Shown one piece after another: positions 41,761 through 44,700 of a stretch of 64,000 nucleotides of DNA. The stretch's first letter is position 1. Every line of letters starts with the position of its first letter. Both the position numbers and the translations under genes were made by a program. Source of the stretch: Dictyostelium discoideum (lineage: Eukaryota); NCBI GenBank assembly GCA_000004695.1, contig CM000153.2, positions 4,416,001 to 4,480,000 of the forward strand, given 5' to 3'. The notes below the pieces were generated by a model. It did not search any database and was not told the DNA's origin. It saw nothing but the letters and a program-made list of their open reading frames with translations.

Positions 41761-44700
41761 TTAATACAATTTTTTTAATTTTGAACCCAACTTGTTTTTG
41801 GTTAAAAGTAAATTGGTTCTGAATTTTTTAAAAATAATTGAACAAATAATTATAATACAAACAAAACCAACACAAGGGACAACAATTACCACTGGTAAAA
41901 ACCATTTGTCATGACCATCATCATCATCATTAATGCATTTTTTTATATTCAGAGCTAACTAATACAGAGAAATCTTTAGATTTAAATGTTAGTATTTTTT
42001 TTTTTTTATTTTTTTTTTTTATTTTTTTTTTTAATACATACCTGGATCAATTATACATTTCTTTGTACAATGAGGTAAATATAAACCAACAATAACACTT
42101 TGGTTATTATTGTTTTGAATGGTTGGTTGTTTAACAATTTTTGTTGTAATAAATGTTGGGTAACCATCACTAACAACTCTATTAATAAAACGACCATATA
42201 AAATTTTTTTATTTTTTGAAATAATAATATAATTGGTCATTTTCTATTTGGCTTGTATCTATTTTGGTTTCCTCCAGATTACATTCATTAGGTTTATTGA
42301 TTTTGTCATCATCACTTACAATCGATTCCATTTGAAGTTGTAATGTATTTAGGGAGCTAATATATGGGTAATTTTCAATAACAATTGATATTTTAATTGA
42401 GTTTGCATCTAAAGTTAAATTCAATCCACCAAAGGAGTGTTCTCTTGTGGTTTTTACTTCCTCTATAGTATAAATTACATTACAATCGGTACCATTTAAT
42501 GTATGGTTGAATATAAATAAATTATTTATTGAATTGTCGGTAGTCCAGTTTTTAAAATTATTTTCTTTTACAATTTTTTGATTAAAATCATATTCAACCA
42601 AAGATAATAGTTTAATTTCATATGACGTTTTTTCATTATTTAAAACTGTTGAACCATCGGTTTTGTTAACATTGGTTTCAGAGTCAGGAGGTCTAATTGG
42701 TCCAGATGTTTCACTTGGAGTTGAGGAGGTGGTAGTAGGAGAGGTGGTTGAGGAAGGAGGATTATTGTTTTTAGCATTACAATCGAAGCCACCCCAACCT
42801 GAATTACATTTACATTCACCCACCAACGTATTACAAACTCCATGGCCAGAGCAATCATTTGGGCATTTATACACCATTTCAGAGTAATGGTAAATATCTT
42901 TTGCTATATATACAATACCATTTTGAGTTAGATTTACAGATTTTGTACCTGATCCAGCACCAATTGAGCAAGAGGCATATGAACTATTTATAATGAAATT
43001 GTTACAATCTAAATTTCCTATTCGAATAGTTAAATTATTATGTGAGAATCCAAACCAGCCAAATATTTGAACTAATCCACCATCTGTTGAAGATGGAATA
43101 ACTGATGAAATGTATTGTAGAGGTGTCTCACAATGTTGTCCAGTATAAAGTTTATTACATGTACAAATACCAGTTTTATTATTACAAACATTATCTATTG
43201 CATCTATTTCACTACAACCACCACAATCAATAAAAGGTAAATCACAATTTAAACCTTGATGATTATTATCACAAATGCAAATACCAGTTTGATTATTACA
43301 TTGTCCAAAAGCACCACAAAATAATTCACCACCATATAGGCAATTATTTATTAAAATTGAACAATCATTTCCTTTATATTCACTATTACAAATACATGAT
43401 CCATTGCCAGTAAAACAAATACCATTATTACAATCAACTGAACACATAGTAACATTATTAATTACTTGACCCCTCTCAATTGTAACTTGAGTAGTCAAAC
43501 CAAACGAGGTTAATAAAACAATTCTATATGGTTTTAATTGACTAAAGCCCATCAAACAATTTATTTCATTGAAAGTAGTGGATAAAATTTGACAATCATT
43601 ACCATCAATTGTAATTGAAATATCACTTTTATTATAAGAATAGAATGATCCAATAAAAGTATATGTATTCCCAACAAGAGGAGATGTTATTGTTTCAATA
43701 ATTGGATAGTTTGAATAAGTAGATAATGTATAATTTTTACCTATAAATTCAAAAGTAATAGCTTTTTTAGATCCTATATTGGTTACTTGGCCTTGAAATA
43801 ACTTGTTTGGTTTTATCATTGACATTGTGTTGGGTTGATTAGAGATTGGAATTTTGTAACCTAAATTTTCTCCCCATAGAGTAAAACTATTGTTTATAAA
43901 TATTATATTTGGTATTGGTGAGTTATTTATACATTTTGGAAAATTTAATTCTGAAACACTGGTGTTTTTAATTAAATAAGAAAGTACATCATATTGTGAA
44001 CTCATATAACCTTTTATTTTTTTTTTATATTTTCAAATTTCCAAAAAAAAAAATTAATAAAAATAATAACAAAAAGAAATTAAAAACTATAATAATAATA
44101 ATATACGTACATGAATAACAAACTGGTATATTAGTTATACCAATATTAAATGAAACATTTAAAAGGGTATTACAAAAACTATCGGGTATTGAGCCTTGAA
44201 AGTTATTATAAACAAAATTTCTAAAAATTATTGTTTGATTAGTTATTTTTTTTTTATAGATAATTTTAAAATAAAAATAATGATAATTACAAATTCGCTG
44301 TACTATTTAACAAAAAGTCTGGTAATGGTCCTGACAACGAATTTTTTCCAAGATTCACCGATTTAACATTCATAAATATATTTTTATTTGGAATAGTGGC
44401 AATTCCACCATTGGCTATTATAAATTCTTGTAAAGATCCTGGAAGATTTGTTAATGGAAGAGCAGAGTTTAAGATTGGAAAAACAAAACTGTTTGAAGAG
44501 GGATTTATTTTACTATAAAAATTATTGATATAAAATAATATTAATTATTAAAAAAAAAAAAAAAATTAAATAAAAAAAAATATCAATAATAATATATACA
44601 TACAAATATTTTAGTTGTTTTGAATTTGATAAATCAATTGTCGAATTCAATGGGCTTATATAACCATATAAAGAACTAATATTAGTAATAATAACAATTA

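Follow-up and report, generated by a model that had tools for sequence, protein, structure and literature searches.

Two derived frameshifts very probably mark a young truncation allele of the ComC-family receptor gene DDB_G0286417 in AX4-type Dictyostelium discoideum

Introduction

The gene comC encodes an EGF-domain protein that has a signal peptide and a transmembrane segment and is restricted to group 4 of the Dictyostelia (PMC4931340, Table 3). The Pfam set of the ComC family includes the supersandwich domain (ComC_SSD, PF22933, 222 positions), LRR_ComC (PF24141) and two Beta-sand_ComC models (PF24142 and PF24143). Here we describe a gene of this family, DDB_G0286417 of Dictyostelium discoideum AX4, which occupies positions 45981 to 41761 on the minus strand of a 64,000-nucleotide (nt) stretch of contig CM000153.2 (positions 4,416,001 to 4,480,000; the whole stretch is called the window below). 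The window copy is very probably a real, young and lineage-specific loss-of-function or truncation allele, of the AX4 type, of a ComC-family receptor gene, broken by two separate frameshifts. A literature search on DDB_G0286417 found no paper mentioning the gene in the library covered.

DDB_G0286417 shares with comC and its paralogs, such as DDB_G0289113, a supersandwich domain (full once repaired), EGF repeats and an IPT/TIG domain, and its ancestral open reading frame (ORF) likewise ends in one transmembrane helix and a short tail. Identity to the paralogs is only 28-41%, and the first sandwich and LRR models of the family set find no match. Unlike the family, the window allele has a truncated supersandwich domain and a transmembrane helix that is out of frame. 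A second class of comparable systems is formed by the strain-specific frameshift pseudogenes of multigene families, which show the same small derived indels with intact alleles segregating in the species, the same accumulation of more than one disabling lesion and the same setting in a large, fast-evolving family of surface proteins; unlike these, the window gene is still treated by the AX4 reference annotation as an ordinary protein-coding gene. Closest of all are the intact alleles and orthologs, found in the same slot between a WD40-repeat gene and a myosin gene, with the same exon structure and 77-99% protein identity. In contrast to the window, they possess 8 further nt (TAAATTAT) in exon 8 and a 6-nt stretch in place of a run of seven A in exon 9, and read through to ..KKLY-stop.

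Results

The spliced product of the window gene as it stands has 1015 amino acids (aa) and is identical, residue for residue, to XP_637741.1 / Q54LT9, so that the AX4 reference annotation simply ends at the premature stop. The original prediction had started from a minus-strand ORF at 42209..44005 (598 aa, ending ..ENDQLYYYFKK-stop), which is indeed present; it had been taken for the ectodomain and proves to be part of exon 8 alone in a nine-exon gene. The second ORF that it had placed in the +1 frame was also recovered (42031..42240, open from 42240), and reads MTNYIIISKNKKILYGRF...CIIDPGMY (displaced frame MTNYIIISKNKKILYGRFINRVVSDGYPTF...CIIDPGMY).

The first lesion lies in exon 8. Intact alleles here have the arrangement AATTAT-TA-AATTAT. 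Missing from it in the window are 8 nt (TAAATTAT or, equivalently, AATTATTA), one unit of the direct repeat; the junction can be placed anywhere in the 6 nt 42234..42229, which are the AATTAT copy that remains. Contigs of nearly identical sequence from the Logan read assemblies read GACCAATTAT, TAAATTAT and ATTATT in succession, and the middle 8 nt are those missing from the window. Such a pattern would be expected of replication slippage between the AATTAT repeats. A small-repeat finder did not report the 6-nt direct repeat at this site, although it is directly visible in the alignment. The effect is a net +1 frame shift after ..ENDQL, inside the supersandwich domain. That domain is consequently split by frame, with hidden Markov model (HMM) positions 2-162 of ComC_SSD matched in the first ORF (E 4e-26) and 161-218 in the second (E 1e-22). 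The division of one Pfam domain between two frames puts the frame break far beyond a chance pair of ORFs.

The break had previously been located in the A-rich run just downstream. This placement does not hold, since the run (AAAAAATAAAAAAA) is identical in the intact alleles and the deletion sits 12-20 nt upstream of it. Across the region the orthologs read ..TSQIENDQLLNYIIISKNKKILYGRF..; the frame must have changed before the run is reached, since upstream of it the second frame already encodes the conserved NYIIISKN. A simple homopolymer repair, with one A deleted from the A6 run, yields ..YYYFKNKKILYGRF and was ruled out, as the orthologs read ..QLLNYIIISKNKK.

A single break had been described; a second frameshift, with its own stop (41932-41930), had been missed. 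All orthologs read ..CIIDP/DFSVLVSSEYKKCINDD..KWFLPVVIVVPCVGF..FKKFRTNLLLTKNKLGSKLKKLY-stop (the slash marks the exon junction), which identifies TCTAAAG/AT at 41974 as the conserved acceptor of intron 8; every ortholog reads IIDP/DFSVLVSSEYKK there. Translated from this acceptor, the window gives DFSVLVSSEYKKMH-stop: at 41944-41938 it has seven A in place of the six bases of the orthologs. The change from A6 to A7 in exon 9 is thus a second +1 shift. The splice into a transmembrane exon that had been proposed for the second frame is right as to its GTATGT donor at 42041 and the transmembrane-plus-KKFR sequence downstream; the acceptor that it needs, at 41955, is not conserved. Acceptor enumeration disposed of two candidates: 41959 leads to a stop, and 41955, while in frame to the transmembrane exon, cuts out conserved coding sequence and was rejected as a normal splice.

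Either lesion alone removes the membrane anchor. The transmembrane segment reaches a hydropathy maximum of 3.16 and is present, with type-I topology, in the repaired ORF and in all orthologs; the 1015-aa product ends before the helix, whose sequence is two frameshifts away. An N-terminal hydrophobic, signal-peptide-like segment (MQLKVYIFVLLIYLYYFVSFS) was recognised by eye alone.

At both sites, and on through the transmembrane helix and tail, the gene is intact in five syntenic orthologs. Two belong to D. discoideum (ACTFIW_012896 of ACTFIW and ACTFIR_011438 of ACTFIR), two to D. cf. discoideum (ACTFIY_008120 of ACTFIY and ACTFIZ_011132 of ACTFIZ) and one to D. citrinum ACTFIU (ACTFIU_003091); they were compared together with a 660-aa Logan ORF, P0002. 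A provisional repaired protein used as query retrieved the syntenic orthologs, 1105-1141 aa long, and paralogs of the ComC family at greater distance. Six Logan contigs (L001-L006; run series SRR268692xx and SRR285645xx) cover window positions 44565..42007 and are intact at the first site; over about 2.57 kb they differ from the window by one single-nucleotide polymorphism (SNP) and the 8-nt gap, with one contig also 1 nt off in a poly-T run. The SNP, at 42717, is C (Pro) in the window and T (Leu) in the Logan contigs; it falls in a Ser/Thr/Pro-rich linker before the supersandwich domain and is the sole substitution.

The ratio of nonsynonymous to synonymous substitution rates (dN/dS) in exon 8 is 0.20-0.31 in all ortholog pairs, indicating that DDB_G0286417 is under purifying selection elsewhere. 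Between the window and its nearest intact allele there are 0 synonymous and 1 nonsynonymous changes in 1776 coding nt, which points to a very recent inactivation. The suggestion of a young pseudogene or truncated allele is thereby supported, as it is by intact alleles in the same species and in sister species.

The same 8-nt deletion, A7 run and C at 42717 recur in a second assembly, GCA_054883475.1 (locus tag ACTFIT, L007), which an exact-match search with the myosin protein brought up. Over 18.4 kb the only differences from the window are at ten long homopolymers (of at least 17 nt) and 2-3 intergenic SNPs. The homopolymer differences mark it as a separate assembly that was not taken over from the window sequence; its strain would be the same or a very close one. 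A deletion outside any homopolymer and found in two assemblies is not an assembly error; the deletion is implicit in the AX4 RefSeq protein too, and the homopolymer indel or assembly error that had been offered as one explanation is not supported.

The gene model of that second assembly, ACTFIT_005399, bridges the first lesion by a 106-nt intron (42282..42177) and ends at ..EYKKMH. This intron is a predictor artefact; its A+T content is 77%, as against 86-95% in the eight real GT-AG introns of the gene.

With the 8 nt put back, one A removed and acceptor 41974 used, the repaired protein has 1144 aa and a single complete ComC_SSD at residues 859-1079 (HMM 2-222 of 222, 190.7 bits, E 3.6e-56). 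For comparison, the product as it stands scores 91.2 bits over HMM 2-162 only (gathering score 24). Other Pfam matches are EGF_2 (49.9 bits, cut-off 22.1), EGF_Teneurin (44.6, cut-off 24.3) and TIG (27.1, cut-off 20.9), and the second ComC beta-sandwich model scores 24.1 bits, below its cut-off of 27. Neither LRR_ComC (PF24141) nor the first ComC beta-sandwich model matched even at E<=1. BLASTP alignment to the paralog DDB_G0289113 is colinear over paralog residues 341-556 (E 3e-8). Judged by its supersandwich domain, EGF repeats, TIG domain and this colinearity, the gene is one for a type-I membrane glycoprotein of the ComC family in group-4 Dictyostelia. Its ancestral product is about 1141-1144 aa long, with, in order, an N-terminal hydrophobic segment, a divergent region resembling leucine-rich repeats, beta-sandwiches, EGF repeats, an IPT/TIG domain, a further EGF domain, the ComC supersandwich, one transmembrane helix and a short basic tail.

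In the family alignment, the invariant residues Y1011, K1019, G1023 and R1024 (numbering of the intact ortholog P0001) and the near-invariant DPDFS motif lie beyond the premature stop. An AlphaFold2 model of P0001 (mean predicted local distance difference test score, pLDDT, 75.7) shows 20 strands in the supersandwich domain. Eight of these, at 1009-1079, come after the break, and beyond them a long helix, 1096-1136, spans the transmembrane segment and tail.

The gene was delineated by tblastn of P0001 and a search for GT-AG junctions. Exons 1-7 are intact. Coordinates are collected in Table 1.

Table 1. Features of DDB_G0286417 in window coordinates. A slash marks a splice junction.
Feature	Position	Strand	Remarks
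Whole gene	41761..45981	-	ATG 45981-45979; ancestral stop TAA 41763-41761
Exon 1	45981-45644	-	
Exon 2	45475-45350	-	
Exon 3	45225-44992	-	
Exon 4	44905-44762	-	
Exon 5	44675-44604	-	
Exon 6	44512-44291	-	
Exon 7	44220-44111	-	
Exon 8	44010-42042	-	Pfam: beta-sandwich, EGF repeats, IPT/TIG, EGF, most of ComC supersandwich domain (from ~42682)
Lesion 1, sole retained AATTAT copy	42229..42234	-	Pairwise and multiple DNA alignments with Logan contigs L001-L006 and orthologs L008-L012
A6-T-A7 run AAAAAATAAAAAAA	42204..42217	-	Invariant in all seven aligned sequences; not the lesion
Premature stop TAA	42209..42211	-	After six out-of-frame residues YYYFKK; end of annotated 1015-aa AX4 protein
Intron 8	41974..42041	-	68 nt, GTATGT...TCTAAAG, 91% A+T, phase 1, conserved
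Exon 9	41973-41761	-	
Cryptic AG TTAGTTAG/CT	41955..41956	-	Acceptor enumeration; inside conserved coding sequence (V-L-V-S-S)
Lesion 2, A7 run	41938..41944	-	Six bases in all five orthologs (AAAAAA, AAAAAG or AAAGAA); one A inserted
Second premature stop TAA	41930..41932	-	..SSEYKKMH-stop, conserved exon-9 frame
Ancestral transmembrane helix FLPVVIVVPCVGFVCIIIICSIIF	41830..41901	-	Followed by conserved tail KKFRTNLLLTKNKLGSKLKKLY-stop (to 41761); out of frame in window allele

Discussion

Both lesions are absent from the five orthologs, and the first site is also intact in a nearly identical conspecific allele, so that both are derived. Two small frame-disrupting mutations were accordingly acquired in the lineage of the window strain, and the window allele would be a recent loss-of-function allele, either polymorphic or a 'young' pseudogene. 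What is encoded is a 1015-aa protein whose last extracellular domain has lost 8 of its 20 predicted strands and which has neither transmembrane helix nor tail. It had been proposed that the broken gene makes a secreted, truncated ectodomain: truncated it is, but a stop in the middle of a beta-sandwich, with those strands gone, makes a well-folded secreted product doubtful, and the truncated supersandwich domain probably misfolds. With 168 nt between the premature stop and the last exon junction downstream of it, mRNA decay is conceivable, and the mRNA of the window allele may be unstable.

Several points weigh against a young loss-of-function allele. The loss of function is read from sequence rather than from transcript or protein, and the independence of GCA_054883475.1 is judged from how its sequence differs from the window rather than from metadata. 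Support for the deleted allele comes from two assemblies and the AX4 RefSeq protein, not from raw reads; exact look-up of the window's 598-aa, 69-aa and 43-aa ORF products in the Logan read assemblies found none of them. The Logan contigs end in intron 8, so the nearly identical allele P0002 is known to be intact only at the first site, and a search with the last-exon peptide for Logan contigs covering the second site gave no candidates. A secreted truncated protein could, moreover, keep residual activity or gain a new one.

Some of these points are what one would expect were the frame break an artefact of sequencing or assembly and the real AX4 gene intact: the Logan short-read assemblies yielded only the intact allele and no record of the truncated ORF products, and the second lesion, a 1-nt change in a homopolymer, is of the classic error type. 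The first lesion, however, comprises 8 nt of non-homopolymer sequence, which is untypical of errors, and both lesions and the C at 42717 are shared with an assembly that disagrees with the window at ten long homopolymers. The Logan sequence also differs by a SNP and so belongs to another strain; it is no corrected reading of the window strain. We therefore regard an error as very improbable. Somewhat less so, although still improbable, is a truncated allele that remains functional, its secreted 1015-aa ectodomain still acting in signalling or adhesion, in the old way or a changed one. No other stop or frameshift occurs in exons 1-8 ahead of the break, the N-terminal hydrophobic segment, EGF repeats and TIG domain are kept, and the gene is annotated as protein-coding in AX4. 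Yet in so young an allele the intact state of the upstream exons carries no information on selection, the loss of eight strands and of family-invariant residues makes it unlikely that the supersandwich domain folds, and the further, independent disabling mutation downstream is in keeping with a relaxation of constraint once the gene had been inactivated.

The overlap of the two frames in the A6-T-A7 run, together with a cryptic acceptor at 41955 that would put the transmembrane exon in the second frame, could also be read as a means of restoring the full transmembrane protein, by programmed ribosomal +1 frameshifting or transcriptional slippage in the run, by alternative splicing, or by both. 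This we find scarcely credible. A shift in the run could not recover NYIIISKN, which is conserved and lies in the second frame upstream of it; the frameshift is not conserved, every relative having one continuous ORF, and the first lesion is a derived deletion with respect to a nearly identical allele. As to splicing, acceptor 41955 drops the conserved DFSVLVSSE (HMM positions up to 222), and the sole intron that bridges the break is the predictor artefact described above, which deletes conserved domain sequence.

The main value of the allele lies in annotation and strain hygiene; this is ordinary biology, with nothing pointing to a new mechanism. The protein databased as a 1015-aa 'EGF-like domain-containing protein' (XP_637741.1 / Q54LT9) is the anchor-less, C-terminally truncated remnant of a transmembrane protein of about 1141 aa. 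Work on the ComC family in AX4-type strains is done in a natural mutant at DDB_G0286417, where a knockout would be expected to show nothing. Automated models in newer assemblies mask the lesions by a fake intron and drop the helix from intact orthologs. The 8-nt deletion is usable as a strain marker.

It is unlikely that D. discoideum populations maintain the presence and absence of the receptor as a natural polymorphism, as opposed to the gene having decayed in a laboratory strain. Sliding identity to ACTFIW (91-96% in the gene, 96-98% in the WD40 flank) and dN/dS (about 0.23-0.28) gave no convincing signal of balancing selection or unusual divergence. Were such a polymorphism real, a null allele of a receptor for cell-cell communication or adhesion in development could alter social behaviour, for instance partner recognition or cheating, and the function of the gene would have stayed hidden in the standard laboratory lineage, itself a natural knockout.

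Neighbouring genes and other observations

Downstream of DDB_G0286417, on the plus strand, is a 2116-aa ORF (35077..41427), mhcA, the gene for myosin II heavy chain; exact-sequence look-up of the protein matches an NCBI Dictyostelium assembly. The two genes are convergent, their stop codons 333 nt apart (41427..41761), and the spacer is nearly pure A/T, with a poly(T) of about 20 nt near 41540-41560. Directly upstream, on the minus strand, is the intron-containing WD40-repeat gene (46465..47678), whose product at the orthologous loci has 293 aa. Synteny with the WD40 gene upstream and mhcA downstream is kept in five other assemblies, and the position of the WD40 gene in all six examined.

Long trinucleotide runs of the ATT/TAA type occur in intron 1 (45480..45600) and at many other sites, for example 5056-5200, 20370-20640 and 51900-52020, and cross-match throughout the window in BLAST comparisons; they are typical Dictyostelium simple repeats.

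The ACTFIW and ACTFIR assemblies, both labelled D. discoideum, diverge from the AX4-type sequence by 4-9% at the DNA level across the gene (synonymous divergence, dS, of 0.14 in exon 8) and by 2-4% in the WD40 flank (window 41700-48500). Sequence divergence of this order suggests a deep lineage split inside the named species D. discoideum.

The ortholog of D. discoideum ACTFIW has an in-frame 3-nt deletion in the transmembrane helix, VVIVVP becoming VVIVP. The protein models ACTFIW_012896, ACTFIZ_011132 and ACTFIU_003091 splice out the helix (e.g. ..WFLPVNQFTF..). Since the DNA reads through and encodes an intact helix and tail, these helix-less models are annotation artefacts. The D. citrinum ortholog is, in addition, annotated as N-terminally short (870 aa), with a separate 261-aa model just upstream (L011 1255-2387 and 2501-5744); the two are probably one gene split in two.

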